Below are positions 6,081 to 59,213 of a stretch of 64,000 nt of DNA, in pieces (the first letter of the stretch is position 1; the number at the start of each line of letters is the position of its first letter). The position numbers and the translations under genes were made by a program. The stretch comes from Hormiphora californensis (lineage: Eukaryota > Animalia > Ctenophora), in the NCBI GenBank assembly GCA_020137815.1, contig CM035350.1, positions 1,798,001-1,862,000 on the forward strand, in the 5' to 3' direction. The notes below the pieces were generated by a model that was given only the letters and a program-made list of their open reading frames with translations, searched no databases and had not been told where the DNA came from.

Positions 6081-6412
6081 AATACAGATTACAAAAAGCA
6101 CACACATTTCTAAAACAAAGTCAGATAAAAAAGTAACTTTTTACTCTCTAATTTCAGCATCTACACTCTCATTTTGTACAGGATACGTGAGCTTCTTTAT
6201 TCGATCTCAAATATTCCTCTAACTTCTGTTTCTCTGACTACTGACATACCATGCTCTGCAAAGATACCACGAACAATATTCCAAGTCGTGGGGATATCAG
6301 GAACTACATTTACAGACAAAAAGGCACATATAAATTCTGCTAAGCTACTCAACTCTCTCTCTCTCTACACACTGAACTGCAACTGCTAGTTTTTAGAGGG
6401 GATGTGATCAGC

Positions 6413-8885
6413 TCAGGCACTGTAGATACTCTCAATGTCTATAACCTCATTATTTTCCAATACAGCTCCATCCCGTACCATTGTACACACAATGTTGGCA
6501 ATGTTTCTTGTGTCCGATATACCACTGTGGGGCGTCCTAGGGGAGGATGAGGGGGTTAGAATAGGCTTTATTTATTAGGGGAGGAGGGGGTTAGAATTAG
6601 CTTCATTGGGGAAGAGGGATTAATGCTGGGCCCTTCCCGAATCCCGGCTCCATATTCCCCTCCTTCCCAGCTGGGGGGAATATGGAGCCGGGATTCGGGT
6701 TACTGGGTTAGCCTATGGAAGAGGGGACCGGTAAATTAGATAGACTTACCCCTCAGCTTGTAGCCCCAGTGTTTTTAACATCAAGTCCAAATTTACTCTC
6801 TTCACTCCGTAGAAATTACAGAATTTCCGTCTCACATTGCAGAACTGCATACACATTTGGGGGAAGTCCATATTGTTATATCTGCATTCCTTCGCTAGGA
6901 ACTTCTTGAAATCCCATGGCCTGGGTAAAGGAGATGATGGTGATTTGTCGAGTTTAAATGAGGTTTAAACACACTTGCACTTTTTGGTTTCTTCAGTCTC
7001 AATTTGTTGGGCAAGTCCCTACACTTACCCGTCAGTTATGAAGCAGAGATTGGTTATTCGTTCATCTGATCCTTCCTCCTCATCCCCCTCCTCCCCAGGC
7101 GGGGCTCTCTTCTCGTCCAACCACCTCCCCAGATCTCCCCAGACACTCGTGAAATCTCTACTCTGATTTATCATAGTCTGAGGGAGAGTTTGGGTCGTGA
7201 TATTCTCAAATACCTATCAAAGAAACAATGTGAGACTGATAGACTGATCACAGATAGACAATAAAATTAAACGAATGAAACAGAAAAGGGGAAGGTACCT
7301 GGTTGATTCCGGTTAATTTCTTGCAAAACGGTGACAACTGAGGGCACATCTTGGGTTTAACATACTCGTGGAAGATATCAACCTGTAAGAGAAATAAGTA
7401 ACCAATCAGTTACACAGATACAGTAACAATGCAACTGTGTGTGACTCACTATTATGTGTGAAGAGCGATGTTTGGGTTTTTCAAGCGATCCAAAGGGAGA
7501 CTTTGCGCGGGGTCGTTCACAAGTCGTGCACCGCGCGCTACAAACAATGCAGACAGGGAGGGAGAGGAAGGAAACCAATCCTGGGGAAACAAAAACCACA
7601 CCGCATCACATACTGTCATGGATTGGTAATGAAATTCCCCCTCTGCGCTAGCTCACGGAGGGGTAATAATATCGCTTGTACGGCGGGAAAAAAATTCCTG
7701 TGTCCAAACTACAAAACAGAAAGTTCTAATTTTTTGAACATACCGAGGAAATTGTCTGAGCTACCATTACATACCGGAATTTTTCGATATTTTGGCCATT
7801 AACACTGTTTTTGTTTTTGGAAAACTATGAAGATGCTGGAATTTGGATACAAAAAGCTTCAGAAATGTGCAAAATGCCATTCCAAAGGTATTAGAGGTGG
7901 ATTCATTGATAACTAAGCTATAGTCGAGTCAGAAAAAATTCCACAAGATTGGAATTTTATGCCCATATAAGGAGTTATGCGACACACCTCTGTTGTTAAA
8001 CATGTGGTGTAATCGCTACCGGTCGTTACTTTCTGTAGAATTCAGGTCCTGGTTACTATACAAACTAGTACCATACGTTTTAGATAGGTTTTAGACAAGT
8101 TTTCGATAACTTTTTATGAGAAGGTCCCGTAAATTTTCATTTTTAGGTAGGCGGTATTGTCACCCCTATATGCAATAATAGGGGTGACTTCGTAACCAAT
8201 GTCATGGACTAGTTACAAATAAACCACCAGATAATAGTGATCTCTCTCTAGACACTTACAATTCTGGCAGTAGCGACCTCGATCAGAACCAGAGGAACCT
8301 CAATTATCTCGTGCATGTAATCCGTTCCAACAGCACTGCGAGAATTATTGTCATTGTCATTGTTAGAAACCAGAGGAATACCACGATATTCATTCATCCT
8401 AATTATCTTAATTAGGGTAAAAATACCTACTTTTCATCACATGTCGCTTCAAAATCAATGACAGCGTAGTGCGAGTAGGGGTTCTTCCGGTGCCAAATAA
8501 GAATGTGTGGATAACGGAGTGATTCTACTCTCCTGTAGTGCTCTTTTAGTCGCTTCTGGAGGACTTGTGGCGAACCCCTGCAAGGGAGATAGGGTTTAGT
8601 TGTGGCAGAAGCATTGATATAGTGGCCTCACAGAGCGGAGATTGTGGTCGCAGAACCAAACACAAGCGTGGTTGAGGAACTCATGGGCTTTGTTTTTTCT
8701 TCTCTTCCAAGTACTTGACTTAGGAGAGAAAATAGCACGCGAAATTCCTAACGGCCTAGGACCTACCTAGTATCAAGTCCCACACTATTTAACTCTTCCT
8801 TTAGTACAGCAGTAGATATAGTGTGGATGCGGCCGAACTCCTTAGTTAAATTGGATATCCTCTTACTATCCTCATAACTTGACAT
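6413..8885 (-). CDS. ERI1: 3'-5' exoribonuclease 1 (SAP + DEDDh domains), multi-exon
   Basis: Hand-spliced: MSSYEDSKRIS...LKEELNSVGLDTR|GSPQVLQKRLKEHY (SAP), YAVIDFEATCDE, HEIIEVPLV, FHEYVKP...LSPFCKKLTGINQ, FITDG|PWDFKKFL, PHSGISDTRNIA. These are the ERI1 exonuclease motifs. TGA at 6413-6415. Absent from the ORF track because the exons are short. Confidence 0.92.
6636..6699. repeat. Near-perfect hairpin in the last ERI1 intron
   Basis: cccgaatcccggctccatattcccc ... ggggaatatggagccgggattcggg (25-bp arms). Confidence 0.85.
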
Positions 8886-9479
8886 TGGGCCTAGTTAGAT
8901 TGGGTCGGGTTAGTACTATTGGGTCGGGTACCTAGTTTATTGGGCATTTTGGGTTAACTTATTGGGCTAGATTAGGATCAGTTAGTATAGGGAGTATGTT
9001 TATTGCAGGGCGGTGTTAGAAAATAGTGGACCTCAGTGCAGAGATATAGCAAGGAGCAATACACTGGGGGCATTGGCGACTACTGCATCTCTCATCAATC
9101 TAATTTCGGTGTCCTCTAACTAAAAGGACAAAAGGTACGGGAGCTCTAACTTGGGGGAAACAAAAAATGTAAACAATGTACTAAATCAATTAAAATTATT
9201 TTATAATCAACTTTCTATAAAGTCTAAAAACAAAACAAAATGTAACCCTGCAATAATAAATTAAGTTGTTTGATTGTGTAAAATAGGTGTGTGCTTTGAC
9301 ATGCTAACATAGCAAAATAAAAAATCCTATAAAACTGCTTGTAAAGTGGAGTGACTGTAATACCATGTAGCACGCTTGTAAAGTGGACTGGAATTTGTTA
9401 TGTTCAAACCCTCCGGAGCGCACGGAAAGAGGGTAGAGCAAGGCAAACTGGAATCACTCAAGACCATTCTTGAGTGTAA

Positions 9480-10317
9480 CTACTCAATAAAGGTGCAAAT
9501 CTCGTCGAGTGGTTTACGTCCAAAGTCAGGGACAGTAGCCTTGTCAGAGGGATAACCAATGGGCAGCAGGTAGGCCAACTTCTCGTGATCGGGACGATTC
9601 AATAACCTGAGATGTGTAGAAAGGGGTGGATTCTCTCTTTTAGTTAAAATAACGATCTCACCGCAAGAGTAAGACCTTCTGTTTTCCATAAATCCCATTC
9701 AGTAAGGTCTCGTCACTACAATAAACTAAACCTGCTAGGTGGTCTACACTCTACATACCTCCGTAAGGCAGGCCCGCAGTTCATGGGAGTACTGGTAACT
9801 GTAACAAGTCCAACATTGTTTAGTGCACAGAGCAGGATACCAACAGCAATGGAAACAGACGCCTGGGGGTTGTAGTAGGAGTTGGAGAAGGAAATGCAGT
9901 GGAAATATACAGTAGCAGTGGAAATGGTAGTCGCAGCTAGAAACAATAGTAATGCAGTGGAAATGGAAATGGAAACAGTATGAAATTCTAACTTGAGTAT
10001 TCGAACATCTCTGTGAAGAATGAGATGTCTCCTATGCTGTTATGTCGCATTATGGGCGTGGTGACAACTGACAAAGGATCGAGCTAAGAAATATCTATCT
10101 CACCTCGTAGTACCAGTGGTTATGTCTCTATCTCACCTCGTAGTACCAGTGGTTATGTCTCTATCTCACCTCGTAGTACCAGTGGTTATGTCTCTATCTC
10201 ACCTCGTAGTACCAGTGGTTATGTCCCCATACACAAAAGTCGTGGAGTTTCGGGCGTGAACTCCAAGTCAAATTCATGAGTTAGAATAGGGAAAAAGTCG
10301 AACTAAAAACGAGGGAA

Positions 10318-10411
<94 letters not shown>

Positions 10412-11433
10412 CTCTAAGCAGTAAGTGCTTGCGTATCATGGCCCATGTCAGCGCCTTGCCTTGTAAACATATTATGGCCCTTGTCAGCGCCTTGCCTTGT
10501 ATACATATCATGGCCCTTGTCAGGCCTTGCCTTGTAAACATATCATGGCCCTTGTCAGGCCTTGCCTTGTAAACATATCATGGCCCTTGTCAGCGCCTTG
10601 CCTTGTAAACATATCATGGCCCTTGTCAGCGCCTTGCCTTGTAAACATATCATGTCCCTTGTCAGCGCCTTGCCTTGTAAACATATCATGGCCCTTGTCA
10701 GCGCCTTGCATTGTAAACATATCATGGCCCTTGTCAGGCCTTGCATTGTATACATATCATGGCCCTTGTCAGGCCTTGCCTTGTAAACATATCATGGCCC
10801 TTGTCAGCGCCTTGCCTTGTAAACATATCATGTCCCTTGTCAGCGCCTTGCCTTGTAAACATATCATGGCCCTTGTCAGCGCCTTGCATTGTAAACATAT
10901 CATGGCCCTTGTCAGGCCTTGCATTGTAAACGTATCATGGCCCTTGTCAGCGCCTTGCATTGTAAACGTATCATGGCCCTTGTCAGGCCTTGCATTGTAA
11001 ACGTATCATGGCCCTTGTCAGGCCTTGCATTGTAAACATATCATGGCCCTTGTCAGCGCCTTGCATTGTAAACGTATCATGGCCCTTGTCAGCGCTAGTA
11101 ACTTGTCAAATGAGACCTGAGAGAGAAGCATGCATTTGAATGGTGAAAAGACACTCCAGGCGGCTCCATGATCTCCCCCTACCCCCTTTATAATGTACGT
11201 GACGTCACCAGTATTTAGACTCCATATAAAATGACTCTCACTCTTCCGACTCCATACTTGTTGATTCTGACTCCAACTCGCGCGGCTTTACAAGTCGCGC
11301 GCGATTTATACTCTCTTGAATTGTAAAAGTAGTATCTCTTCCATGGTGCAACGGTTAGCAGCTCCGACTCTGAAGCAGGCGACCCGTGTCCAATTCCCGC
11401 AAAACTCATAACAAACTAATGAATTTTTTTTAA

Positions 11434-11483
<50 letters not shown>

Positions 11484-13853
11484 CAAGGCGCTGACAAGGG
11501 CCATGATACGTTTACAACGTGAGGCGCTGACAAGGGCCATGATAGGTTTACAAGTCATATTTCTCCTAAAAATTTGGACTCCAAGTCCACTCTCAGACTT
11601 TTGGGTTAGGGGTTATGTCTCTATCTCACCTCGTAGTACCAGTGGTTATGTCTCTATCTCACCTCGTAGTACCAGTGGTTATGTCTCTATCTCACCTCGT
11701 AGTACCAGTGGTTATGTCTCTATCTCACCTCGTAATACCAGTGGTTATGTCTCTATCTCACCTCGTAGTACCAGTGGTTATGTCTCTATCTCACCTCGTA
11801 GTACCAGTGGTTATGTCTCTATCTCACCTCATAGTACCAGTGGTTATGTCTCTATCTCACCTCGTAGTACCAGTGGCTATGTCTCTATCTCACCTCGTAG
11901 TACCAGTGGTTATGTCTCTATCTTACCTCGTAGTACCAGTGGTTATGTCTCTATCTCACCTCGTAATACCAGTGGTTATGTCTCTATCTCACCTCGTAGT
12001 ACCAGTGGTTATGTCTCTATCTCACCTCGTAGTACCAGTGGTTATGTCTCTATCTCACCTCGTAATACCAGTGGTTATGTCTCTATCTCACCTCGTAGTA
12101 CCAGTGGTTATGTCTCTATCTCACCTCGTAGTACCAGTGGTTATGTCTCTATCTCACCTCGTAGTACCAGTGGTTATGTCTCTATCTCACCTCGTAATAC
12201 CAGTGGTTATGTCTCTATCTCACCTCGTAGTACCAGTGGTTATGTCTCTATCTCACCTCGTAGTACCAGTGGTTATGTCTCTATCTCACCTCGTAATACC
12301 AGTGGTTATGTCTCTATCTCACCTCGTAGTACCAGTGGTTATGTCTCTATCTCACCTCGTAGTACCAGTGGTTATGTCTCTATCTCACCTCATAGTACCA
12401 GTGGTTATGTCTCTATCTCACCTCGTAGTACCAGTGGCTATGTCTCTATCTCACCTCGTAGTACCAGTGGTTATGTCTCTATCTTACCTCGTAGTACCAG
12501 TGGTTATGTCTCTATCTCACCTCGTAATACCAGTGGTTATGTCTCTATCTCACCTCGTAGTACCAGTGGTTATGTCTCTATCTCACCTCGTAGTACCAGT
12601 GGTTATGTCTCTATCTCACCTCGTAATACCAGTGGTTATGTCTCTATCTCACCTCGTAGTACCAGTGGTTATGTCTCTATCTCACCTCGTAGTACCAGTG
12701 GTTATGTCTCTATCTCACCTCGTAGTACCAGTGGTTATGTCTCTATCTCACCTCGTAATACCAGTGGTTATGTCTCTATCTCACCTCGTAGTACCAGTGG
12801 TTATGTCTCTATCTTACCTCGTAGTACCAGTGGTTATGTCTCACACCCTTGTCATCATCATGGTATGGAACTTTAAAGACCAGGATAATAGCGGGGGCCT
12901 CTGTGATGTACTCCTTGACAAATGTAGTCTTGATTGTCTGCAAATCACCCAACCACTTCTTACCCATTCTCCGCTCGTAGTTAACCTGTAGTAAATATGA
13001 AATAGTTAAGTATGTAGTCGAGATAAATCACTTCCATCATTATCACAACGGTCAAGGAAGTCGAGTTCCTATGAATTCAGTCATTAAACTATTACTGTTA
13101 CACCATTATAACTCACCCTCTCCTCATCCTCTACTAGAGACCTGATAACCTCTCTGTCCTCCTTATTGTACACCACTACAAACCTCCACGGTTCAGTGTG
13201 TGCCCCACTAGGACTAGTCCCCGCTGCCAGGACACACTGCTCAATCACCTTCCTCTCTACCGGGTCAGAGGAGAAGAACCGGCAGGATCTCCGCTGGTTT
13301 ACCAGCTTGTAGAAGTCACGTGATCTTTGGAGCATGGTGGCGGGGTCGTACCGGGGTAGAGAGAAGGGGATGTGAGTGGAATCCTCCTCAATCTAGAAGG
13401 AGAAGACAGGTTAGGGAGAACAAGGGGCAAAGGTCAAAGAAGATACTGGAATATTTCGTGAGGTAGTTTTTTATACAGCTTAGTATCTAAGGCAGAGTAA
13501 AGCCTGCAATTCAACGAGAAAAGACTCACGGAAGGGATGTATTTCTCGTAGAAGTAGTTTCCATCACTTTCCTCCACAACATTCTTATCAGCAAACAAAC
13601 CACCATCCGGTGCCTCCTCCTCCTGCTTCCCCTTAGCCCCGCCACTCTCCTGAGATACAGATTCCAGTTGTATAATATAGTCAGTCTGATAGACTTGTGT
13701 GTCCCCCTAGTCAGTCTGATCCCCCCTGCTTGAAATAGTACATTGAGGAAAGTGAAAACATCTACACCTCAAGTAAATGGATCAACGCTTCTACACACAT
13801 ATCAACATCACATAATTAGCATACTGCTGCATATGCACACGCTTTCCCAGTTT

Positions 13854-13884
<31 letters not shown>

Positions 13885-14061
13885 TCCCTCCCTCTCTCTC
13901 ACACCTAGGTGCCAACAAAATAGGCTTACATTTGGAGGGGAGGTGGGGGTTTTAGCAAATATTAGGTCCAGTATAACTTTAACAAGGAGAGCAGCTACAC
14001 CCATTACAAGATATTTGCAAAGCATTTTGTTCTCCGATATAATCTTGTTGACTACCTCCAT
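9480..14061 (-). CDS. IYD: Iodotyrosine deiodinase (nitroreductase fold with N-terminal membrane anchor), 6 exons
   Basis: Exons at about 14061-13931, 13650-13531, 13392-13118, 12985-12818, 9861-9758 and 9606-9480. Motifs [43 protein letters not shown]|[46 protein letters not shown]. Confidence 0.96.
10225..11612. mobile_element. Non-autonomous DNA transposon inserted into the IYD 33-bp array
   Basis: Imperfect TIRs ccccatacacaaaagtc / gacttttgggttagggg. Target duplication TTATGT (6 bp), or GTTATGTC (8 bp) if the termini are CCC/GGG. No transposase ORF seen. Confidence 0.75.
10435..11096 (+). repeat. 31/33-bp minisatellite inside the transposon, with inverted copies at ~11484-11552
   Basis: Unit gcccttgtcagcgccttgccttgtaaacatatcatg-like, about 20 copies. 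Confidence 0.93.
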
Positions 14062-14317
14062 GGTATAGCCTTGCTATAGAAGGAAGTTAGTTAGAGAGAG
14101 GGGGTTCTGAAACGGGGCATGTTGGGAACTAGATTTATATCGGTCAGGGTTGAGGGGTAAATAAGTTATCTTTAGTTTTCATGTAAAGTTATAATAATAT
14201 AGTGGTACATCAAATAGTAAATCACACTTTCCACTCGCTCGTCATTATATAAATATTGATTCTTTTGTAAAAATGTCTTGTAAAAACAGGGGGCGCTAGC
14301 CAGAGCACTCTCCTGAG

Positions 14318-17300
14318 CTAAATGTGTCCATGTGAGGTTTGATCGAGAGCGGAGCACTTTTTGATCAGTTTGTTGTATCCCCTGATCTTTCTCCTTCTTC
14401 CGCCTGTCACGTGAGGTCGAGCCCTGTGTGAGGAGAAAGAGAGTTAACGTGACAATGAAACAAAACACACTCTGATTCTCTTTCACTATTATCTCTTTCT
14501 ATCTCTCCCTTTCTACCTCTCTCCCTCTCTCCCTATCTCTCTCTGATTTCTACCTCTTTCCCTCTCTCCCTATCTCTCTCTGATTTCTTCTTTTTTGTTC
14601 TACCTCTCCCTCTTTCTTTCTCGGATACAAATCTCTCGTGTACATAATTTCCCTACGACAGCTGTAACATATTAGGGGTTATGGAACGCTTTTCATACAC
14701 ACACAATACACCACCTCTGACCAGGACCTTACATATTCACATAAAGATGATACATCCCATGATCTAGCTACAATATTCACATATCGGTACTTCTCTCAAT
14801 TACTATTGTTCTATCTTATTACCCAAATCTATATCCTAATTTTACCTTTTCGGGGGAGGTTCATCTGTCACACCATCACCATCACCCTGTTGTTGTTGTT
14901 CCCTACCAGCTGCAGTAGACGTGGTATCCGTCTCTACTGATACCGGAACTGTATCACTCTAACGGAGGGGATGTGAGGAGTGTATGGGAGTGGGGAGTGT
15001 GTGTGTTTATAGAGTGAGTAGGATGGAAGTGTGTGGGAGATGAAAAACATATCGTGGTATCTGCCGTAGAAACACACCACAGCTCAGAGATCACAAAACA
15101 CAATATCCAGTTTTAACCTAATTGCAAACTAATTACTAATTAATATAATTAATTAATTACCGTTGCACAGAGATCCTGTTTAATTGCCCTCATCTGTTGT
15201 TTCTGTATACTCTTGTAGAGGGTCTTCAGTTCCAACCACCGTGTCTTGGGGAACACCCTGATATCCTGTAGTTCACACTTCTTCTTCTCCTTGATCTTCT
15301 TCTTCTTCCTTCTCTTCGCCTTCACAATCTTCAACTGCTTTCTCAGCTCTGTGTCGGATACTACTACAGCAGCAGTAGTAGGTGTAGTAGCATGTGTAGT
15401 AGATGTGGAGTCGATGAGCGGACCAGACAAGCTGAGAACACGTTTAACCTAGAAGTTGAGTTTGTTAGTTAATGAGTTAGTTAGTTAGTTAATTAATTAT
15501 TTGGCAGATACGTAGCTACGCACGCGAGAGGATGGAGTAATTTGAGACAGAGAGGATTTGCCAACTTCATTTTCAAAGTCAATACACACGAAATGGAACA
15601 AAAGCAGCGACTGTGCAAAGTTGTGAATCAGCTACTCATCATGATTATTGAAAGACAGAGGCCGATCAAAGAAAGAAGTCTTTACATGGCCCCTTTAGAT
15701 ACACACGTGTCACGACCCGTCTCCCTCTATCACTATTATTATGACACACTCCAACATCCCAAGCAGAACCCCCCTAGTCTAGTATCACCGGTGTTCCGAG
15801 CCCCTGTGAGACTAAGAACTTCCGATGCCCCTTGTTTCCCCCCGATTCCCTCACGTACCTTCTTATCAGTGATGGGGGACTCTGTTTCAAAGCTAGTTCT
15901 CTTCCTCTTCCTGGCAGAGTGAGATCCAACAAGGCCGTGATGCAGTTCCGTAGGAGTTGTTACTGCTGCTGGTCCGGTGGGGGATATCAATAGTAGGGGA
16001 TCCCTGGGAGGGGTGATAAATATTAGCTTCTCCGTTAGTTAATGTAACAAACTCTCGTTTGCTCTTTCTCTAGTAAATGTAACACACGCTCTTTCGGCTG
16101 TAGGGTAGCTCAGCTTTCTAATATTCGAACAAATATGGAATATAGAAACTAGAAAAGACACCGAATACCGGCAGTATGTTACATGTCCCAATCTCACTCC
16201 ATTATTATTATATGGACATGATCATAAAGTCGGGACACTTTTGAAATTTCAAAGTTTAAAAATATCGACCAAATTTTTTAAAACTAATAATTATGGTACT
16301 TTTATTCATCCAAACAACTCAAAAATTTGGGAGCAGATAAAAATATGAACAAAGTACAATATTTGATAATAAAAAATACGATTACTCAACCGAAGTGGAT
16401 CTCAGGACAACATTTGTAAATATTAAAATACAGAACCACAGTTACCACCATTTTAGTTTTAGTCCAACGGGTATTATAGATAATCGTCATGACTAGCTTA
16501 TTAGGGTTGGTTGAGTTGTTAATTACTCAACCTATGTGGATCTGGAGACACTTGAACTTTGGGAAGCGAAAAAGGGTCTATAGAATTCTCATAGACAAGT
16601 AATTCAGGGCTTATCTTTTTGGAAAATGTCTAAAGTTTCCATATTTGGCAAAGGTGGAAGAATAGGACGACTCAACCGGTGTGGATCACCGTTTTAAAAC
16701 CTCACTTTGAAAACTTTTCAGCTAAAAATGGAATTTTAATCACTTGTATTGGTGGCAATGGCTACTAGACCTTTTTACAACTCAAATAGAAAACTCATTC
16801 CATGTGGATCAATTTTTTTCTGAGAAATTTCACTTTTGATCCACAATGGTTGAGTCAGAATCTATTATTCCGCTCCACATTATGTTTTGGTATGTAGTTC
16901 CCAGATAGTACACACTGTTTTGATGCATAGATTTCCCATATGATCCACAAATATTGCCTAGAAGTTAGACTGCTAAGAATGGTTTATTATATACTGACTT
17001 CGAGCAACGGTTACAAAAGTGATGATCCACAAGAGTTGAGTCATTGCTTGACAAAAATTTGGATATAGTCTAATGTCGGATCGATTTACGAAACTTTTGA
17101 GAATAATCGGGACCCGAAACTTCGTCATAAACTTCCGGTTGAGTCGCATTTTATGAGAAAATTGAAAAAAATCCACATTGGTTGAGCATACTTTGTATAT
17201 TTACCCATGCCAATCAATTTGTTACTATACCATCTATCATCCCACAAAGTTTCAAGGACGTACCATTAACCTAACTCGGTTGAGTATGCTGATCCACACG

Positions 17301-19056
17301 TTTCTGATCCACATACTTTAAAGCCTTATAAAACAAAGCATAATTAAGCTTTAAAATTCTAGTTTTCACAATTTTTATCTAGTGACAATTTTTGGTGGAT
17401 CAGATTACTCAGCCAGGTGAAAAAACCAAATTTAAAACTCAAAATCCACATTTTTTTAAACATTGTAAAAGTGTCCCGACTTTATGATCATGACCATAAT
17501 GAAGTAGTCGAGTCATGAAACATAATCCATGTTCCACTGCATATTAAAAATTCACACGAAGCGGGATCCCAGGAATATACCTGTTTTGACTCTTCAGATC
17601 TGCCAGACATACAGAAGATCTACGCCTTCTTCTCTTCTTCTTCGCTTCATCTTTAGCCTCTTTTGTCAGCTCCGTCTCAGAACAAACATCTGAAAATCCT
17701 TGTTAGTGGCAGGAGATAGGTATCTAACACAACTGAACAAGTTAATTGATTAATTAATTACCTGGTGTTCCACTAGACAGTTCAGGAGTATCAGTGTTTG
17801 GTGTTACAGAGTCAGATCTTGAGAAACTGAGACTTCTTGGAGGACTTCGAAATGGTTTTAACTCTGGTTTCGCTTCCTTCCAACCCAATCCCTAGTTTGG
17901 AGAAGGCTTACTTAGACTCAAGAGGTAACTTATATCAATTATTCATCGTATTACTGTATGTGTTAGTGTACAAGTGATCTGATTTAATACCTTTAGAGCA
18001 GCGCTGGCCTCCTGAACTGTCCTGAACTCAACAAAAGCGAACCCTTTTAGCTCTTTGTTGTTTTTAAATCTTGGCAGAGAGATCTTCATGGCCTGTCCAT
18101 ATTTCCTGAGGGCTTGCTCTAGTCGCTTGTGGTCCATTTTAGTAGGTAGGTTCTCCTGAAACGGGTGGTTTTGGTAAAGACAATATATAAAATAGGCGCA
18201 ATCATACTCTCCAGCAGAAGTAAATCTAGGTACAAAATACCGCCGAAACTGAGAGCTGATACAAGTGAACAATCACAAGTCACAACTAAAGAACTTACAA
18301 TGTAGATAGACCGATTGTCAGCATTGTAAAGAGGATTAACTGTAGTGGTTCTCCTCACACTCTCCCTATCGGGGCTCAACTCTAGCTCCGGGAGGAAGGA
18401 TATACTCTTGACGAGGAGATCCCTGCCACAATTCAACTCAATCATCCGACCAAACTGCTCTATAGTAGAAAGAGGAACATCTGGAGAGGGAGAGAGTGAC
18501 AGACATTACATCTGGAGAGGGAGAGAGTGACAGACATTACATCTGGAGAGGGAGAGAGTGACAGACATTACATCTGGAGAGGGAGAGAGTGACAGGCATT
18601 ACATCTGGAGAGGGAGAGAGTGGCAGACATTACATCTGGAGAGGGAGAGAGTGACAGACATTACATCTGGAGAGGGAGAGTGATATATCAATAAGAGTGA
18701 CAATAAGAGTCACATATTATAACAGTTAGACACGTCCTTCAAACAAGCTGTTGCGACATACGTTGGTCCATATGGCTATAAATTAGATTATTTGTAATCT
18801 AGTACTTACAACCATCTGGATTAGCTTTCATGAGTTTTAACATGTGCTTGTCCGATAACAGATTACTATCACTAAAGTAGAAGGAAACCTGGAATAGAAC
18901 TTCATCATTGCTGATCAAATAAAGTAAGAATCATTTCATTTGAGTAGTGTTTTAGTAGGTGTTTACCTGCTTTTTAATTTCGTTGATGATGTGCTTTTTT
19001 CGTTTCCTTTTTCCCGTTCGATTAAACTGAAGTCCATACCTCACAAAGTTGGTCAT
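14318..19056 (-). CDS. LARP7: La-related protein 7 (La motif + RRM1), multi-exon
   Basis: MTNFVRYGLQFNRTGKRKRKKHIINEIKKQ|VSFYFSDSNLLSDKHML...DG|YVPLSTIEQFGRM (La motif), RSIYI|ENLP...KGFAFVEF (RRM), IRVFPKTRWLELKTLYKSIQKQQM, and C-terminal RKIRGYNKLIKK, matching LARP7 conserved blocks. Confidence 0.88.
16213..17496. mobile_element. Non-autonomous TIR DNA transposon in a LARP7 intron
   Basis: 30-bp TIRs tggacatgatcataaagtcgggacactttt / aaaagtgtcccgactttatgatcatgacca, flanked by TA. Many internal gatccac and actcaacc motifs. Confidence 0.85.
18477..18683 (-). repeat. 31-bp minisatellite (7 acceptors); unit = LARP7 polypyrimidine tract + CAG + first 4 exon nt
   Basis: Minus-strand unit aatgtctgtcactctctccctctccag|atgt. 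Confidence 0.95.
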
Positions 19057-19612
19057 TGCCTATCAGGTGTTGTCGTTTGTTAGTCAATGTAATAATGTTA
19101 AGTCAGACAGTATTTCATGATGAAATTTGAAATCTGGGATCTGCTAGCTTTTTTGGATTGCAATATTTACGCTACAGTGGCTTCAAACCAAGGTTCGCTT
19201 ATAAACCTGTCCTCCACGTTCTTTTAAATGTCTCAAAAATCGGGAAAAGGATGTGCACCTTTACAATTTGGGTGCGTGCTTCCAAAAAAGTTGATTCAAT
19301 AAAATGGCTCTAACTGCCAAACCACTCAACCGTTTTGGATAACTCAAAGTTTATCTGGTAGGAAATGTCAAGGGACAAGGCCTAACCCCAACCCAAACCT
19401 TTACTCTTTAGCAATTAGCCCTAACCCTAAAAACCGTTTGTCAGCACTCACCAAACACCCAGATTTTAACGCTGGCCGAAAAGGATAGGCAAACGCTGCT
19501 GGGATAACTGATAAGGCAGCGTTTTTCAAGAAAAGGGAGGTACACAGCTCGTGTTTTGCAATTTTGGTCAAAAAGGTTTTCGGAAAACCAGCTAAATTTT
19601 TAGGCGCCAATA

Positions 19613-19994
19613 AGGAACCATAATAAAGTTCAAGAGCGCACCCCATCCAAGAGCGTACCACCTCCAAAAGACACCACTCCAAGAGCGCACCACATCAAAG
19701 AGAGCCCCCCGTCCAGAAGATACCGCGCGCAGGGGACACCACGCGCAGAAGAGACCGCACGCGCAAATACAACGCCGCGCTGGTCTCTTCTGCGCGTGGT
19801 GTCCCCTGCGCGTGGTATCTTCTGGATGGGGAGCTCTCTTTGATGTGGTGCGCTCTTGAAGTGGTGTCTTCTGGAGGTGGTGCGCTCTTGGATGTGGTCT
19901 CTTTTGGGTGTGGTGCGCTCTCAGGTGTGGTCTCTCTTTGATCGGGTACGCTCTTGGGTGCTCTTGGAGGCTCTTGAACTTTATTATGGTTCCT
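19613..19994. mobile_element. Foldback MITE
   Basis: TIR aggaaccataataaagttcaagagc / gctcttgaactttattatggttcct, with largely palindromic internal aagagcgcacc repeats. Confidence 0.85.
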
Positions 19995-19995
19995 T

Positions 19996-20234
19996 ATAAA
20001 GTCGAATTTTTTATTTAAGCGACAGGCCGCCGCGCATCAAAATGCAGCGCTTGAAATCGATTTCCGGTTCCTGATAAGCTAGCGACTTTTTCTTGGTGCC
20101 ATTGGAAAGATAAAATTTTTATCTTTCCAACGCAACCGGGATCAAGTCTTTATCTTATCAGGAACCGGAGATATGACCAATTAACCAATTGAGTGCGCGG
20201 CGGCCTGTCGCTTAAATAAAAAATTCGACTTTAT
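19996..20234. mobile_element. Hairpin MITE abutting the previous element
   Basis: 41-bp inverted repeat ataaagtcgaattttttatttaagcgacaggccgccgcgca and its reverse complement. Confidence 0.85.
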
Positions 20235-20358
20235 TTAGAAACCCCTGCGCGGCGCGGCGTTTTCTGCCAAATAGCCGCTGCATTTGTATTGACGCCGCGC
20301 GATTCAGAAATAAAGTTTCAACGGCAACGCGACGTTTTTAAAATCTGAGTGCCTCTCT

Positions 20359-20581
20359 AGGGATCCCTAATAAAGTTGTGACTTGTCACCAAACATGTGG
20401 TTCCCGTGGCGGCGCGGCTTCAAAATGCGCGATTGTAACTTGTCACCGCATGGTTTGCGCCGCGCCGCAGCTACGCGCAGTGGGAACCACGTGCGTTTTG
20501 GTACGCGCACACGCGGTGACAAGTTACAACCGCGCCTCCGCAAGACTACAGTGACAAGTCACAACTTTATTAGGGATCCCT
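20359..20581. mobile_element. Hairpin MITE
   Basis: 31-bp TIR agggatccctaataaagttgtgacttgtcac / gtgacaagtcacaactttattagggatccct. Confidence 0.85.
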
Positions 20582-20910
20582 CTGGGCTCTGGCCGCTGGC
20601 GGTCGAGTCTCGAGAGTGAGACGGATTCGGGATTAGACCTTAGAGCTGTCCGTTATCGTCTGATTAGGGCTATGTTTGGGCTTATCGGTTAGCGCTATCC
20701 GTTATCTGTCCAATACCGTTTATTCAAACTGGCCATGTGATCGCTAAACTCGCGGGTTGTGAAACTTTGGTTGGCAAATGACTTCCTACCGCTGGGATCT
20801 GAACTGCAGTAGCTCAGCGTGCAGAAGCCTGCAGTATAATGCAACCAGGCTGTCTAAATTTATGATTAAAAGTTTATTAAATAACCCGCTTTGTTGTCAA
20901 AGTTGCCAAA

Positions 20911-21216
20911 ATGTCAGTTAAAGATGGTCACTCATTTTGCAAGCTGAAAGATTTGCCATCGCGAGCACCTGGTGACACAATCTCTACACTAGGATACGTT
21001 ACATTCTTTGACCCTACCACCGGACTTGTTAAGTTATCATTTGAAAACAGTACAGTCAAAGTGAACACCAAAATGTTAGACCCACAAAACTACACGCCCG
21101 GGTCTCTTTTCTTCTGTCTAGGATATGTCGAGAAGGATAGGACACTGTTGGCAAAGATCCTCCGTGCAAGTAATGAGCTGAATATCGAGAAGTTCCTGAG
21201 TATAACTGGACAATGA
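20911..21216 (+). CDS. TEN1: CST complex subunit TEN1 (single OB fold), intronless, 101 aa
   Basis: GDTISTLGYVTFFD...VKVNTKMLDP...GSLFFCLGYVE...LLAKILR...LNIEKF parallels TEN1 as I recall it (GSTLRTFGRL...VLVCTKLVEP...GSLYIVLGEL...VKARVL...MNLPLL). Confidence 0.8.
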   Translation: MSVKDGHSFCKLKDLPSRAPGDTISTLGYVTFFDPTTGLVKLSFENSTVKVNTKMLDPQNYTPGSLFFCLGYVEKDRTLLAKILRASNELNIEKFLSITGQ

Positions 21217-22374
21217 GTAATGTCACAACGTTACTCTACCAACGGTCATTTTCTTTGTTTGATCCATCTTTTACACATACGGTCCGATCCAACCTCACCC
21301 TTTCCTTCGACCTGACCGGTAATACGGAGCTGCAACTAAAATCTCAACACCCATCGTACTGTCTTGACATTGATAAAACTGGGGAGTTTCTCCTGTCAGG
21401 TGATAATGGCGGTGGGGTCTCAATACATGAAGTACACAAGATCGAGCCGTCAACAAACAATATTCTCCCACCTGTGAGCCATAAACGGCAACTTCACAAA
21501 TTTGCCATAACTTCTGTTTCGTGGTATCCACTGGACACTGGGGTCTTTGTGACCGGATCCACGGATAAACAACTCAAGATATGTGACACTAACGCTATGA
21601 CAAGTGTTGATAACATCAAGCTGAAGGGTCATGTTTATGATATAAGCATGTCTAAACGGACGACAGGGAAAACAACTAATTTAGTAGCTGCAGCGTGTTC
21701 AGACAATAGAGTCATGGTATGTGATCTGAGGTCTGGGTCAGCTACCCATACACTCCGGGGTCACGAACAGGCAGTTAACTGTGTCACCTGGTCTCACAGG
21801 AACTCATACACATTATTGTCAGGGGGACGGGATGGTAAGATAATTACATGGGATATCAGACGTGCTAGGTCAGCTGTGAGTTACCTAGACCAAGATAACA
21901 GAGGACAATGAAGAGAAGGCCCATAATGGAGCGGTAACCAGTATCACACAAACCCAGGACGGCTTCCTGCTCCTCTCTACCGGCCAGGACAGGATGGTGC
22001 GGTGCTGGGATATAGCTGAGGGTAGCAATACATACACCAACTTTGGAGCTGATTGCTCCTCGGTGAGCTGTTAAGAAGATTCAGAGTGCAGTGAGTGTGA
22101 ACTCGTGTTACCCTGGCCTGGTGTATGTCCCAAATGGGGGCGAGATCAGGGTTTATGATGTGTTGACCGGGCAGAATCTGGCAGACTATAAGGTCCATTT
22201 TAATGGGGTGAATGCAGTTCAGTACAACTGGCACTACCCGGCACTGTACACATGTTCTAATGATGGGGCCATGAGGGTCCTGGAGCCAGTTAGAGAGGAT
22301 CAAACCGGGCCAATTAGCAGTGACAATACGGGAGAAATGAAATGCCAGGGGATACATGGAGTGATTCAGATTGA
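21213..22374 (+). CDS. ERCC8: DNA excision repair protein ERCC-8/CSA (WD40), intronless, with 4 apparent +1 insertions
   Basis: HKFAITSVSWYPLDTGVFVTGSTDKQLKICDTN, DLRSGSATHTLRGH, WDIRRA...LDQ. Continues in shifted frames as AHNGAVT, GLVYVPNG, and ends GDTWSDSD*. Removing 4 bases gives 385 aa. Confidence 0.9.
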
Positions 22375-22587
22375 AATATCATTAAATGTACTTTGTACTA
22401 AGGGGGCCATCAGTTTCATATTAATATTACATTATGTTTGTATCATGATTATGTTTGTGTCTTGAACCGTTGAGACATTATATTGAGCAAATAAACACTC
22501 AATTTCTCTATTTAGAACTCTGTGCCCACTGCCCACGTCCCCTCAATACTTGTTCATTATGTCAATATAATGTTCTCTCTCTAGACA

Positions 22588-28874
<6,287 letters not shown>

Positions 28875-33837: not shown

Positions 33838-36123
33838 ATGATAGTATTATACGGGGCTCTGATTGCCCTGGTTTTCCTTGGCCAACCAGGTAACTCATTA
33901 TTCCATATATGGCATAACCACCAGATGGTTACCATGGTTACTGATTATCATAGTTACCCTGTACTTTCCAAGGTGAGACAAGGGACGCAGCGTGTGAGGC
34001 AAGATCAAGGAGGGGCCTCCCACCCGGTACACAATTCAAGATCGAGGCTAGTTGTCAGATATGTGCGTGTGATGGAGCTAATCGGTTATTCTGCACCTCA
34101 GACTCCCAATGTAAGTTCAACTTGTTTAGTAACAGGCCAGCAAAGTCCAACTAGTGTGGGTGGTAAACAGTGCTCCATCAAACTGATCCTGATATCCAGG
34201 AAGTCCTAACTCTGATATTCCTGTAGGTAAGGATCGAAAGGAGGAAGAGTACAATTCGAGGCACAGAAGACCCTGTATGATGGATGGCAGTGTGTTCAAA
34301 GACCTGGCTAAAGTCCAGAGGGACTGTAACATTTGCACCTGTAGGAATGAGACCTGGGTTTGTACTGAGGAGCAGTGTGATAACGGTCGAGGGAGGACTC
34401 CAACCAACACAGGTTTACAAGCAAAACGTCATGTAGTGACCGGGTTTACTTGGGGTTTTTTTTTGTCGTAGTTGATACGAGGTTAATACCCCACAATTTC
34501 ATTCCCAACAATAAACCCATGATCGTTTCAGGATCAAACGAGAGAGAAAGGACAAGACAAGATGAGAGAGCAAGGAACCCCGAAAGGACAAGACAAGAAG
34601 AGAGAGCAAGGAACCCCGAAAGGACAAGACAAGAAGAGAGAGCAAGGAACCCTGAGAGGACAAGACAAGATGAGAGAGAAAGGAACCCTGAAAGGACAAG
34701 ACAAGAAGAGAGAGAAAGGAGTCAGGAGAAGACCAGACAAGATACAGATCAGAGTACCAACAGGGGGTCTACATCAGAAGATCAGCGGGGAGACAGGACA
34801 TCTTCAAACAGCAGAAAACAACACAACACCCACCGAAAACACCAACCAGCAGCCGCAAAGAAGTGTGTGGACACAGATAACAGGTGTTCTGGAATCATAT
34901 CACGACGGGGTCAGGACATCTGCAACACCAACCCAGTAGTACTGAAGAGATGCCCAGAATCATGTGGGAAGTGTGAGTGTAGTGATTCAGATGACAGGTG
35001 TGGGGATTGGATTAGAAGGAAGGGGCAGGGTGTGTGCACCACTAGTAGGTATGTGGGGAGAATGTGTGACCAGAGTTGTGGGAAGTGCCAGCCTGAAGAA
35101 GAGGAGGAAGTGGTGTGTGAAGACCTGGATGCTAACTGTGCTGTGTGGGCTAAACGGGTGAATATCTGTAAGAGATACAAGTATATGGAGAAGAAGTGTC
35201 AGTTGTCCTGTGGATTCTGTACCCCTCCCCCTGGGCAGGAGGAAGAGGAGGAGGAGGAGGAGGAGAGGACTATTGAAGAGGAGGAAGAGGAGGAGCAGGA
35301 GGAAGAGAATAGGACTGATATGGAGAAGAGTTATATAGAGGAGTGGAAGGCTGATTTGGTTGCAAAAGGTCTACTTGGGGATACCCACAAACCTAATGGT
35401 AGGTAAAGCAGCCTGGTAGATGTTGGTAACATGCCAAAATTAGTGATCATCATGACAGTCATGAGTGCTATCTTGCCAACATTTTTCCAACACCTTCTTT
35501 GCCCCATCAATGTCCAACCTGCCAACTTCTTTTCCATCCTCTAATAATCTCTGGAAGTTTCTTTCCACTCACGTGTGCCAGTGCTACTTGCTAGCCGGAC
35601 ATTTCCCTTGTTGTCACCCCTTCCTCAATAAGATTCCCAAGACCTTCCTCTTTTCTTCCACCTTGCAGAACTAAACTTGGTTAGTTAGCCACTACCCTGT
35701 CCCTGTTACCAGACAATATCTAACCGCGCTCTCTCTCATGTAGACCCCCCTAGACCATACCGCTCTCTCTCATGTAGACCCCCTCTAGACCACAGAACAT
35801 CGTGTTGGAGACAATCCAAGCCACAGCTGATATTAAACCGCCATTGACCATTCTCATTTAAATTACTTCGTGTCATTCATAGCTTCTTCTATCCATCTCA
35901 GCCAATTTCTCTATCCCACCACCTAACCGCCCTAAAATAACTCCACGCCCCCTCCCTAGGTTGCCAGTTCCGATGTGGGGGCCGTGTTTACCCGTGGGGA
36001 TCCCAATTCCAAGGTGACTGTGGACTATGCACGTGCAGACTGAGAAATGGGACCCTCAACGACTACTACTTCTTGTGTTCTAGCCCCACGTGTGGGGAGA
36101 TCGCTCTTAACTGTGAGGGTTAG
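33838..36123 (+). CDS. Secreted protein: signal peptide, VWC/pacifastin-like Cys modules, 12-aa E/R repeats, three ShKT domains, poly-E, terminal VWC-like module
   Basis: Exons at about 33838-33889, 33973-34110, 34227-34412, 34532-35398 and 35960-36123, all joined in phase 1. Motifs CQICACDG..LFCT, DCNICTCRNETWVCTEEQC, CxDxxxxC...CPESCGKC (three copies), GDCGLCTC. Confidence 0.8.
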
Positions 36124-44990: not shown

Positions 44991-45169
44991 TCACTCCTTC
45001 CATTGATTGTTACACGATGTATTGCAGCATTTGTAGAAGGTCGTCATTGGTTCATCTGCAGACCGGGTCTGAATCTGCATGAAGTAGGCCTTGGTGTGGC
45101 TACACTTGGGGCAATCAGCCTCTGTTGAGTCTACATTCTCCCAGGCTTCCTGTAATGAGGGAATATAAT

Positions 45170-45232
<63 letters not shown>

Positions 45233-45574
45233 ATAGAGAGAGGCATAAAGAGAAAGAGGGGAAGTGGGTATGGAAGTGTGTGTATGTGTAATGTAAATTT
45301 AAAAGGAGAGAACCAAACTGAATAAAACTAGAAGAGTTACAAACAGACAGACAAACAAACACCCAGACACAAACAGACAAACAAATAAACAGACAAACAA
45401 ACAAACCTTTCCTCCAAGCACATCATCCAATTCCTTTAACTTGTGGTACACCCTGTTAGTAATCTTCTGATCAATCTGGTGAACGTAACTGCACGTTTCA
45501 CACACAAAGTCGAGCCCAACCTCCCCCTGACCGACTGTAAGGGCGTTAGAGCAGAGTGGGCAGAATAGGAGCAT
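44991..45574 (-). CDS. POLR3K: RNA polymerase III subunit RPC10/C11, 2 exons (45574-45407, 45149-44991)
   Basis: MLLFCPLCSN...KLKELDDVLGGK|EAWENVDST...CPKCSH..AYFMQIQTRSADEPMTTFYKCC. Confidence 0.97.
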
Positions 45575-46493
45575 GCTAGGAAGAGAGAGGTAGGAGGATT
45601 AATTAGACATGTTGTTCGACACGTGCAGGGTTATCAGTGGGAGGGGGTTCTCTGGGGGTAGTACGAGGGTTTCAGAGGTTGTTTTTTGTTGTTGAAGTCG
45701 GGAGAGAGGCTTTGGTTTTCGTGGGTTAAAGAAAATAATAAATTATACTATTTTCAATGTGAAACATAACAATCGAAAATATAACTTAATAGCAAACATT
45801 ACAACTAAAAGTTCCAAACAATTCAACATTTTTCGATGATACCAGTATGTTAATTAATCTTTTCCATTCACACACTCTCTCTCACTTTCTGAGTTGGAAC
45901 TCTTAGAAAACAATCTAAGCTAAATCTAGTGCTGCAGTAGTATACGATCTCACTCCTTCTCTCACTCTTTATCTCTGTATCTCTCTGTATCTTATGATGT
46001 TTTTCACTCTGTATCTTGTTTCTTACTCTCTCTCTCGCATGGCTGTGACTTATTAAAACATGGGAGTTGTCAAACCCTAAATCTTTTTCAACGGATAAAT
46101 TTTCCAGAAAAAATACTTAAACCTAACAACACACTCTACGCTACGACATGACAGAATATTTCGAGATCGTTGAAAAAAACATAACAAACAGTCTCTCAAA
46201 AAATATTCCTCCCTTTCTCTTTCCGATGCAATGCACAGTAAAAACCCACACTTTTTAAAATCCCAAACTCTCACTCTCCCTCACTGTCTCCCTACATCTC
46301 TCGCTCTCTTCATAAGAAGGGTTTACAATCCAGGAGATTCCTTTTCTTGAAATCCTCCATGACAATGATCACCCACGAAGGATCAAAGTGTACCACACTT
46401 CATCACCATAATAATTATATACTCTCCCTCACTCTAAACCATACACACACTCACACACACGCTCTCTCTCACTCTCGGACTAAGATAAAAACC

Positions 46494-53688: not shown

Positions 53689-54293
53689 GAAATGACCTGA
53701 AAGGAGAGAGGGGATTAATCTTAGTTACAAGATGTACTAATAAACAAAGTGAACACTTCTCATCACATCATCTCACTGAGCACGTACAGCTCAGAATGAG
53801 GGGTTTATGAGACATATCATGTCATCTAGCTAGTTGAAAGTAATAAAGAGAGAGAAGATGAAAAACCTTACCTAACCTCTCTAAACGAAAAGAAAAAAAC
53901 TTCTCGCTTACTTTTGTTCAAGCTCCAGAGAACTCTGTCGAGCACTGTCACTGTCAGTTAACAAATCAAGTAACTTTCAAACTTCTTACCTCTCAAACAC
54001 TCAGTCTATGAGTGGGGGTCTTGCTGTCAATTGATGACTCAGGTACATAATATCCTACACAGAGAACGATAGAGAGTTAAATTGAGCGCAACAGCAAAAG
54101 GGATTGGGGAATGTGAAAGGTCAATAATGAGGGGCTGTATGAGGGGTCGCATGATATTATACTCGGAAATACAAACCTACATAAAGGGGCCTTTTGTGTA
54201 AACTGAGATTGTGTACACCATTAGCACACACACACACACGCCGTACCAGCACCTGGTTTCTCTTGACTCTACACGTCATTCGAAATGGGGATG

Positions 54294-54366
<73 letters not shown>

Positions 54367-54435
54367 CAGAGAGAGAGAGAGAGAGAGAGAGAAAGGGAGA
54401 GAGATAGAGAAAGAGAGAGAGAAAGAGAGAGAGAT

Positions 54436-54532
<97 letters not shown>

Positions 54533-57066: not shown

Positions 57067-57352
57067 CTAGAGAGAAAACAAAGGATGGAGATATTATATA
57101 ATGTCAGGTTTACACATGCAATGTGGCCTATACACTGGAAGAACTCCAGAAAAAACACGATATATCACTTGATATAATGTATGGCAATCAAACACAATCT
57201 GGCATACCCGAAAACAATAAAATAATATATTGGCAACTTACAAAAAAATATCTCAATGCACCCTTGATCTGTAAAACTCTCCAGCAGCCCAGCTCTCTAT
57301 AAACTCTACCTTCAAGCAGCAGCAGCAGCAGCTTTCTAAATTCTATAAAACT

Positions 57353-58800
57353 CTAATTTCCACCACCAGCAGCAGCAGCTTTTCTAGCCTCCCTCTCATC
57401 TCTCTCCTCCGTCATTCTCCTCTGCTTCTCCTTATAACGGTCCTCCTCTTCATTCATCATCTGGATGATGGACTGGAGGCTCGTCACGGGGATCCCAAAC
57501 TCATCAACCTCACCCAGGACCATACAGAAGAGGGCACTCTCAACGGTGAACTTGTACTCACAAACAGCCGGCTCCTCCAAGTACATGGTCAGCATGTTCA
57601 TGTGGGTCCCAGATCTCATCGAGCACCTCAACCGCACCTGGACACGCCGGGGCAGGCCCGTTTGGTCGCATATCTCCCCGTTAAAGAAGTAGAGATCCGT
57701 GAAGAGGACGGAGGTGCGTTTTTGGTCAATCAGATTGTTTTCACGGACATGATCAATGTGCATCTTCTCATCCCACAGTCCCAGCAAGATTTCCCTTCGT
57801 CCCTTCTTCTTATCCACATGGTACTGTTTGATACTTTTGTTGTAGCAAAACTCATACTTCCACCATCCCGCACCACCGTCCGCACACTGTGTTCCGGACA
57901 GGAAGAAGGTCACAAATGAAATTCCCATTGGCCATTCCGACTTTTTAATCTCCTTTCCGGCGTTATTCCGGGTTTGTTTCGGGTTGGATTCTACCTTGCT
58001 GGTGAGGTGAGGAGCAGTGTAACTATCGAACAGGGTCTGGCTCCTCTTGTTCTGGATCTCATCGTAAGCGACTGGTTTGGCCCACTTCTTCCCATCTTGT
58101 GAGAGACAGTAGATGTGGTTTATGGGGTCTTCCCTGACCCTATACAACTTGTTGCTACATAACAGGCTTGTATACACAATCACCTCATATGCACACGTAG
58201 ATTTCTCCTTGACACTGACTATTGAGGTTTGGAAGTCCGGCATACACAAATAGAACACTGTCGTTTCCCGCTTCGTACCCGGGATGAGATCGCATGCTGT
58301 ACCCTCTGTGTATTTAACGGAGTAGTAGGGACGCAGAGCACCAGCGTGGTTGATAGTGGGAATGTTACTGCCCTCAACCTCATTCATCTCAGGGTAGGAT
58401 TGGGCTGTTATGTTACCCAGGAAGTACTGCTGTTTGAGCAAAACCTTCCGGTCCTTAGGATCTCGCTCTTCGTGGAATTGCTTCACGTAGCTCCCGTGGC
58501 AAACCTCATAAACCCAGTAGGAATCTACTCGGTAGGAACATGCCTTTTCCCCCTCTAAAAGACCTGATAATCTCACGGGCAGATGAAGTTGAACTCCCAA
58601 TAGAGGGTACTTCCTGTTCGATCGGTTTTGGAAGCTGACAAACATATTCTTCATTGTTAGCAGTACGCATTTTTAATCTGCGTTTTATCGCTACTGAAAT
58701 CGTTAATAGGATCGCCCCATACCACATCAAAATGGATTGAATCGTCAAAACTATCGAAGGCTGCAAAGGTGCCAAGGAGAACAGAAAGAAAGAATATCAT
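57353..58800 (-). CDS. ERLEC1: Endoplasmic reticulum lectin 1 (XTP3-B, two MRH domains), intronless, with 2 apparent +1 insertions
   Basis: Signal peptide MIFFLSVLLGTFA, MRTANNEEYVCQLP, CSYRVDSYWVYEVCHG, GGAGWWKYEFCY, YLEEPAVCEY. Corrected length 481 aa. Confidence 0.92.
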
Positions 58801-58801
58801 A

Positions 58802-59213
58802 TCAGGAAGGAGATGAGTACAGAACTTCAATTGTTAACGAGCAGCCAAAGCAGGTCACGTATCGTTCCAAAAGGTCTACGTCGGCCTGTGATAAAACATA
58901 TTCCTCCTGGCACCTGCAACAGTAGAAATAATTTCCCTCTTCATCCCGGTCAAAGTCTCCTATAAAAACACTGTCAGTGACAGCAACAGTTTGAAGGGTA
59001 TTAAAGGTAAGGCGCGAATCATAAGCCTTTCGCTTTTCTGGCGATCCCAGGATCTCCCAGGCTTTTGACACGTTGAAAAACTCGACTTCAGCGCCAGTTA
59101 CTTTGTCGGGGTGACTCATTAGGGCAAGTTTATGGTACGCCTTTCTGATTAGAGTCAATGGAGGCGTCTTGAGGAACGTCTAGAATGTCATAATATGTGC
59201 ATCGTTGCTCCAT
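58802..59213 (-). CDS. DNAJC24: DnaJ C24 / Dph4 (J domain + CSL zinc finger), intronless, with 1 apparent +1 insertion
   Basis: MEQRCTYYDILDVPQDASIDS+IRKAYHKLALMSHPDK...AWEILG, YCCRC...CFGCSL. Corrected length 136 aa. Confidence 0.92.

Follow-up and report, generated by a model that had tools for sequence, protein, structure and literature searches.

How are two proteins made from a locus where one gene's stop codon lies across the start codon of the next? In the window (the whole 64,000-nt stretch of DNA analysed here), the 101-codon open reading frame (ORF) of TEN1 (20911-21216) closes with a TGA at 21214-21216 that overlaps the ATG of ERCC8 at 21213-21215. The original prediction had described a 4-nt ATGA overlap between two intronless genes with no intergenic room, and this geometry holds (Table 1). 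With stop and start overlapping and no spacer, a TEN1 mRNA must extend into the ERCC8 coding sequence, and an ERCC8 mRNA must start within or upstream of TEN1. Read-through of the stop or an in-frame fusion is ruled out, since the frames differ and the ERCC8 frame is closed at 21174-21176. From the second ATG, at 21220, the TEN1 frame stays open for just 31 codons.

Table 1. Features of the TEN1-ERCC8 locus and of related loci in the window.
Feature	Position	Strand	Basis or remark
Intronless coding sequence of TEN1 (CST complex subunit), 101 aa, ATG with A at -3	20911..21216	+	Pfam, PDB profile
ERCC8/CSA coding sequence, intronless, ~386 aa, three single-base frame breaks	21213..22374	+	PDB, Daphnia alignment, contigs
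ATGA, ERCC8 start overlapping TEN1 stop	21213..21216	+	ORF map; gap-free bridging by X1 and X5 contigs
High-copy repeat upstream of TEN1	20300..20650	.	Contig depth ~3,700-340,000 vs ~50-900 over genes
Out-of-frame 7-codon ORF, 13 nt past TEN1 start, context strong (A at -3, G at +4)	20924..20947	+	ORF scan
Acceptor-like pyrimidine tract and TAG inside TEN1, 91 nt before ERCC8 ATG	21101..21121	+	On conserved G-x-L-F-x-C-L coding motif
Out-of-frame 18-codon ORF, between acceptor-like site and ERCC8 start; second ATG 21173 (2 codons), same stop	21125..21181	+	ORF scan
AATAAA, the only one between TEN1 start and 22600; likely shared poly(A) signal	22490..22495	+	116 nt after ERCC8 stop
Pyrimidine tract and TAG, 2 nt before likely BTB-kelch ATG 22587; likely trans-splice acceptor	22564..22589	+	BTB-kelch gene lies 212 nt after ERCC8 stop
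Chain LARP7-like, iodotyrosine deiodinase-like, ERI-like exonuclease	6400-19100	-	Names presumed
Chain DNAJC24, ERLEC1, DUF2838/GPCAT-like, CABIN1-like, RPC11; mostly intronless	44991-59213	-	Pfam in part
DNAJC24/DPH4 (J domain and CSL zinc finger), first ORF, intronless, one frame break; stop TGA 58804-58802	58802..59213	-	Pfam
ERLEC1, second ORF, intronless; likely start ATG 58800, rival 58727	57353..58800	-	Signal-peptide-like start

TEN1 was recognized by Pfam Ten1_2, with a score of 34 bits where the cut-off is 27, and a profile built from 11 relatives ranked human TEN1 first in the PDB (E 2e-5). For ERCC8, the best natural PDB match was human ERCC8 (E 4.5e-34, residue 51 falling on residue 49); the next natural WD40 protein followed at 1e-18, and two designed propellers scored like human ERCC8. 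Met1 aligned with Met1 of Daphnia ERCC8 over 57 residues without gaps and the next methionine is residue 129; position 21213 is therefore the ERCC8 start. A word-based protein search returned no close ERCC8 relative (4 matches among 299 candidates of near length and 36 among 2385 of longer length).

A point absent from the original prediction is that ERCC8 is not one open frame in the window: there is a stop at 21911 and the frame changes three times. We compared the locus with contigs from four short-read runs: X1, which may be the source sample; X5, which comes from another study and another sample; X8, from organism B; and X14, presumably an RNA run, whose contigs cover neither the junction nor the genes. 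The short-read contigs carry single-base indels relative to the window at 21902, 22068, and 22329. All three are present at full depth in X5, and X8 has those at 21902 and 22068 only. With these three indels, the ERCC8 frame is open to its end at 22374. Because short-read contigs carry indels at all three sites, the frame breaks look like assembly errors. Single-base frame breaks also occur in DNAJC24, ERLEC1, the DUF2838 gene, and the CABIN1-like gene, which points to an unpolished assembly; other frameshift findings in the window need read checks.

With so many frame breaks (ERCC8 alone has three, and others affect DNAJC24, ERLEC1, and the DUF2838 gene), the overlap might itself be an assembly error, or ERCC8 a pseudogene. 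The junction, however, is bridged without gaps and with at least 31 letters on either side in two of the four runs (X1 and X5), the second of which supplies all three frame-restoring indels. The X8 contig is also gap-free across the junction but ends 13 letters beyond it. None of the nine substitutions in the X1 contig falls at the junction, and at least four of the five differences in the X5 contig lie away from it. In addition, P0007, a metagenome protein of independent origin, is likewise 101 aa long and shares the C-terminus, and all three pieces of ERCC8 match Daphnia ERCC8 at 38-45%. The short-read contigs already largely refute the artefact explanation, and we regard error or gene decay as hardly credible.

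Relatives of TEN1 indicate how far the overlap is conserved. The 90% cluster has three members (P0005, P0006, and P0007). The C-terminus of P0007 is identical to that of the window TEN1. P0005 and P0006 are 104 aa long, and their last six residues differ from the window TEN1 and resemble the window's shifted frame, which has its stop TAA at 21218-21220. We infer that the 104-aa forms arose by a small insertion, which would place the stop 4 nt further on and give an 8-nt overlap that keeps the ERCC8 ATG. In the distant relative L001, whose TEN1 is 43% identical, an intronless TEN1 is followed after 417 nt, behind an acceptor-like site, by SET and not by ERCC8. L001 (100-1060) also has an acceptor-like site 44 nt before the TEN1 ATG, so that a tight chain is present there too, with other neighbors. 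As for conservation of the overlap, proposed as a check, P0007 shares the TEN1 end; two of the three near-identical proteins are longer by three residues, and L001 does not have the pair. Judging from these protein ends, the exact ATGA is not fixed even in near-identical TEN1 relatives, and, by the one distant relative with DNA, the pairing is lineage-restricted. It looks like lineage-specific loss of a spacer between unrelated, low-abundance housekeeping genes and not like a functional module.

A whole-library search with TEN1 gave 14 matches. With regard to a possible fused TEN1-ERCC8 protein, the 10 TEN1-like ones were all 80-109 aa; on the ERCC8 side, the two long ERCC8-like proteins examined out of 36 had no TEN1 part, in a database without a close ERCC8 relative. 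A metagenome scan found no relatives among 307 pattern matches with the window TEN1 and one among 100 with alignment A2.

One way to reach ERCC8 on a dicistronic mRNA would be leaky scanning combined with rescanning after short ORFs, or internal entry, in which case the overlap would reflect compaction only. In green algae, leaky scanning has been demonstrated, and some of the loci concerned have overlapping codons (PMC7896298, PMC11291117). An overlap alone thus does not show reinitiation. The out-of-frame ORFs in TEN1 are also short, at 7, 18, and 2 codons, and all of them close upstream of the ERCC8 AUG. By the FlyBase account, simple scanning fails to fit most of the dicistronic pairs in flies, and internal entry is suggested there (PMC4528330). 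On the other hand, TEN1 contains four internal ATGs (20924, 21073, which is in frame, 21125, and 21173), in line with the several that had been predicted, and these are not depleted: four were seen, where window coding DNA predicts 5.2 and synonymous recoding 2.7. Upstream of ERCC8 there are five AUGs, three of them with A at -3. The weak ORF1 start and scarcity of upstream AUGs that leaky scanning calls for were not found, by a start consensus for this organism drawn from 10 genes only. The earlier argument that internal ATGs disfavor leaky scanning is therefore supported by four ATGs without depletion and by the A at -3 of TEN1. No structure pointing to an entry site was found. We consider this explanation quite unlikely.

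Alternatively, a capped transcript of ERCC8 alone might begin within TEN1, or cis splicing might give an isoform without the TEN1 start; the two genes would then overlap in their untranslated regions only. In flies, dicistronic loci often yield monocistronic isoforms too, by way of internal promoters or alternative splicing (PMC4528330), and the acceptor-like site inside TEN1 could serve a cis intron. To avoid upstream AUGs, however, a separate transcript would have to start within the 32 nt that follow the last of the short ORFs, and the touching codons would be left unexplained. We rate this as very unlikely.

The original prediction had also pointed to a pyrimidine tract and AG within TEN1. 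The tract is present, with its TAG ending at 21121, and 15 of its 18 positions are pyrimidines, as compared with 9-16 in 10 intron acceptors read by eye. Only two sites reach this score in the 15,517 nt of coding DNA examined elsewhere, and 5.7% of 20,000 synonymous TEN1 recodings do so; the tract is only borderline beyond chance. If it is used, one primary transcript could give alternative products: leader trans-splicing at 21121 would produce a monocistronic ERCC8 mRNA without the TEN1 start, and the unspliced form would produce TEN1 and carry ERCC8 as 3' UTR. Besides scoring like real acceptors, the site is unchanged in the X1 contig, and the equivalent stretch of L001, where ERCC8 is not downstream, has no AG. 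In chains, the downstream genes carry acceptor-like sites 0-12 nt ahead of their ATGs, and the site of the kelch gene is just 94 nt past the AATAAA; these sites and the kelch position suggest trans-splicing in this organism. BTB-kelch, VWC, and ShK domains mark the genome as animal, and it may be that of a ctenophore. Ctenophores do trans-splice, and a leader is present on 56% of Hormiphora Iso-Seq reads (PMC8527503). The published ctenophore leader motif had no match in the window, and an Rfam search gave no matches.

Operons that are spacer-less and mutually exclusive are known in Ciona and C. elegans, but the boundary there lies between the mRNAs and not within the upstream ORF (PMC1488885). 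Several further points argue against trans-splicing at 21121. The tract encodes a conserved hydrophobic motif; the product would begin with two out-of-frame AUGs (21125 and 21173) before ERCC8; the contact of stop and start would be unexplained; the best site within DNAJC24 reaches only 11/18; and trans-splicing in this organism is putative. We therefore think this route unlikely, though it is a serious contender.

The surroundings of TEN1-ERCC8 bear on both routes. A YAG occurs within ~40 nt of the ATG in seven of the ten genes examined, including all five that follow in chains, and is absent from TEN1, ERCC8, and ERLEC1. Its absence before ERCC8 counts for the dicistronic reading; TEN1 also has no YAG before its ATG, so that the absence is not peculiar to downstream partners. 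Along the chain on the minus strand, the gaps after ERLEC1 are 286 nt (DUF2838 gene), 2023 nt (CABIN1-like gene), and ~920 nt (RPC11), and each of the three has a tract and YAG 0-8 nt before its ATG; DUF2838/GPCAT-like, CABIN1-like, and RPC11 are names that we partly presume. In the other minus-strand chain, whose genes we take to be LARP7-like, iodotyrosine deiodinase-like, and ERI-like exonuclease, an acceptor-like site lies 12 nt upstream of the deiodinase-like ATG at 14061. These arrangements suggest operon-like chains that would be resolved by leader trans-splicing, with both overlapping or near-touching pairs at their heads.

Other features of the window were recorded in passing. Palindromic high-copy repeat elements lie at 19620-20650 between the LARP7-like gene and TEN1, with a depth of up to 340,000 at 20387-20560. 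Long tandem arrays (10460-11100, and 11570-12800 with a 27-nt unit) occupy deiodinase-like introns and give long spurious ORFs. A gene at 33950-35406 (+) combines VWC-like with ShK-like domains and contains stretches of acidic or repeat sequence. Two genes, DDB1 (59851-63318, +, 1155 aa) and the CABIN1-like gene (46494-53688, -, ~7 kb), appear intronless, and there are many introns in the kelch and LARP7-like neighbors. The DNAJC24 chain opposes DDB1 head to head over ~640 nt. DDB1 is a known partner of ERCC8; its position 38 kb from ERCC8 is probably due to chance.

A second pair, DNAJC24-ERLEC1, was met without being sought. ATG 58800 lies 1 nt after the DNAJC24 stop and opens a signal-peptide-like ORF (hydropathy 2.98) that runs into ERLEC1 across frame breaks. 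A rival start, ATG 58727, has a hydropathy of 2.84 and lies behind an acceptor-like site at 58761; 58914 is another candidate splice site at this pair. The codon model put the 58800 frame ahead by 10.8 log units over 123 nt and by 1.1 over the shared 51 nt, and the coding score of this frame was above all but 9 of 648 non-coding frames and below all 95 training windows. Searches for homology at the ERLEC1 N-terminus gave no ERLEC1 match in the PDB with either upstream frame, Atlas matches below 0.9, and no Pfam match; the 58800 ORF presumably resembles the vertebrate ERLEC1 N-terminus. We conclude that ATG 58800 is probably the ERLEC1 start. The likely 1-nt gap, six internal ATGs, and an intronless second gene of this pair count for the reinitiation reading of TEN1-ERCC8. 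The four other stop-to-start gaps measured were 212, 286, ~920, and 2023 nt.

Together, these observations lead us to favor, tentatively and at somewhat less than an even chance, a single dicistronic mRNA from which ERCC8 is made by termination-reinitiation at the overlapping AUG. Reinitiation is favored because it explains the contact of stop and start, fits the AUG load, and would account for a second, unselected pair that likely has the same spacing. After a long ORF, reinitiation needs a start within 20-30 nt (PMC10275272 section 13), and the TEN1-ERCC8 spacing of -4 nt falls inside this range, which counts for it. The transcript would start upstream of 20911 and end near 22510. Ribosomes would terminate at the TEN1 stop and, at low efficiency and without a TURBS, reinitiate at the overlapping ERCC8 AUG. 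Because no intron follows the TEN1 stop, the mRNA would escape junction-dependent decay, and the next gene, BTB-kelch, would be released by leader trans-splicing. In addition to the AATAAA in Table 1, there is one ATTAAA at 22381, and neither hexamer occurs in 20911-22380; such hexamers are weak evidence in this DNA, as ERLEC1 has none after its stop and DNAJC24 has an ATTAAA 125 nt past its own.

The calicivirus-type analogy drawn in the original prediction held for the stop-start overlap, as the two codons lie within ~20 nt of each other and out of frame, but not for the element that accompanies it. No TURBS-like motif occurs in the 120 nt upstream of either junction by match to the core pentamer. 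Nor is there a stable fold before either junction (z +1.83 and +0.98); the last 117 nt before the TEN1-ERCC8 junction fold worse than 199 of 200 shuffles. A motif complementary to 18S rRNA, lying within a structured element before the stop, was thus not found there. As read from sequence, the locus fails tests for TURBS and for leaky scanning and has the makings of a dicistronic locus: two conserved ORFs on the same strand, spaced by -4 nt within a range of -34 to +319 nt. The two mechanisms first proposed, bicistronic reinitiation and trans-splicing within TEN1, are still the best two, although the overlap is not fixed, no TURBS-like motif was found, and algal overlaps use leaky scanning. The routes of expression can coexist.

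A broader scheme would have two tiers, in which chains are cut by leader trans-splicing and the first unit is dicistronic, with TURBS-free reinitiation after an ORF of 100-140 codons. This is a doubtful proposal. If it is true, two pairs among ~16 genes in 64 kb would make stop-start coupling common across the genome, in a bacteria-like manner and far more so than in flies. If ERCC8 is indeed made by reinitiation, the locus would be a compact natural test case for how a cellular animal mRNA supports it after a long ORF with no viral-type element, and the 4-nt and inferred 8-nt overlap variants would offer a natural comparison. Where annotation allows one ORF per transcript, TEN1 or DNAJC24 would go missing, and genes could wrongly be scored as lost. 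Taken singly, the locus belongs to a kind that has been catalogued in flies already; of interest is the frequency of such pairs in this genome.

How does the locus compare with known systems? In viruses, AUGA overlaps need TURBS; reinitiation after long cellular ORFs has been reported, with the rules of distance and sequence stated to be unknown (PMC10275272). Like the TURBS systems of caliciviruses and influenza B, TEN1-ERCC8 has an out-of-frame AUGA overlap after a long ORF (PMC10275272). Unlike them, it has no rRNA-complementary motif or structured element, it is a cellular gene, and its overlap varies in length among close relatives. In yeast, reinitiation that does not depend on cis-elements can be induced (PMC11952965). 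Ciona operons have no spacers between mRNAs (PMC1488885, PMC7986045), and TEN1-ERCC8 resembles these and the SL1-type operons of C. elegans in having no intercistronic DNA and possibly mutually exclusive products (PMC1488885).

Green algae have hundreds of bicistronic loci, some with overlapping codons, that are read by leaky scanning (PMC7896298, PMC11291117), and one added AUG abolished ORF2 output at such loci (PMC11291117). These loci are sensitive to upstream AUGs, whereas the TEN1 start carries a purine at -3 and the gene contains four internal ATGs. The Drosophila catalogue comprises 159 dicistronic pairs, in which small upstream proteins are over-represented and most partners are unrelated, and its exclusively polycistronic loci are spaced by -34 to +319 nt (PMC4528330). 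TEN1-ERCC8 is like these loci in joining unrelated genes head to tail, with a small upstream protein and a short overlap in different frames (PMC4528330). It differs from them in being another gene pair that seems to head a trans-spliced chain, and in having been read from DNA alone, whereas the fly loci have cDNA or RNA-seq support (PMC4528330). Ten1, Dph4, and Dph3 are not named in the 12 supplementary files of that paper that were searched. In the literature searched, which mostly did not cover subscription journals, we found no report of the TEN1-ERCC8 pair or of ctenophore dicistronic mRNAs. The pair was thus not found in print, but two-gene messages of this kind are already known from fruit flies and green algae.
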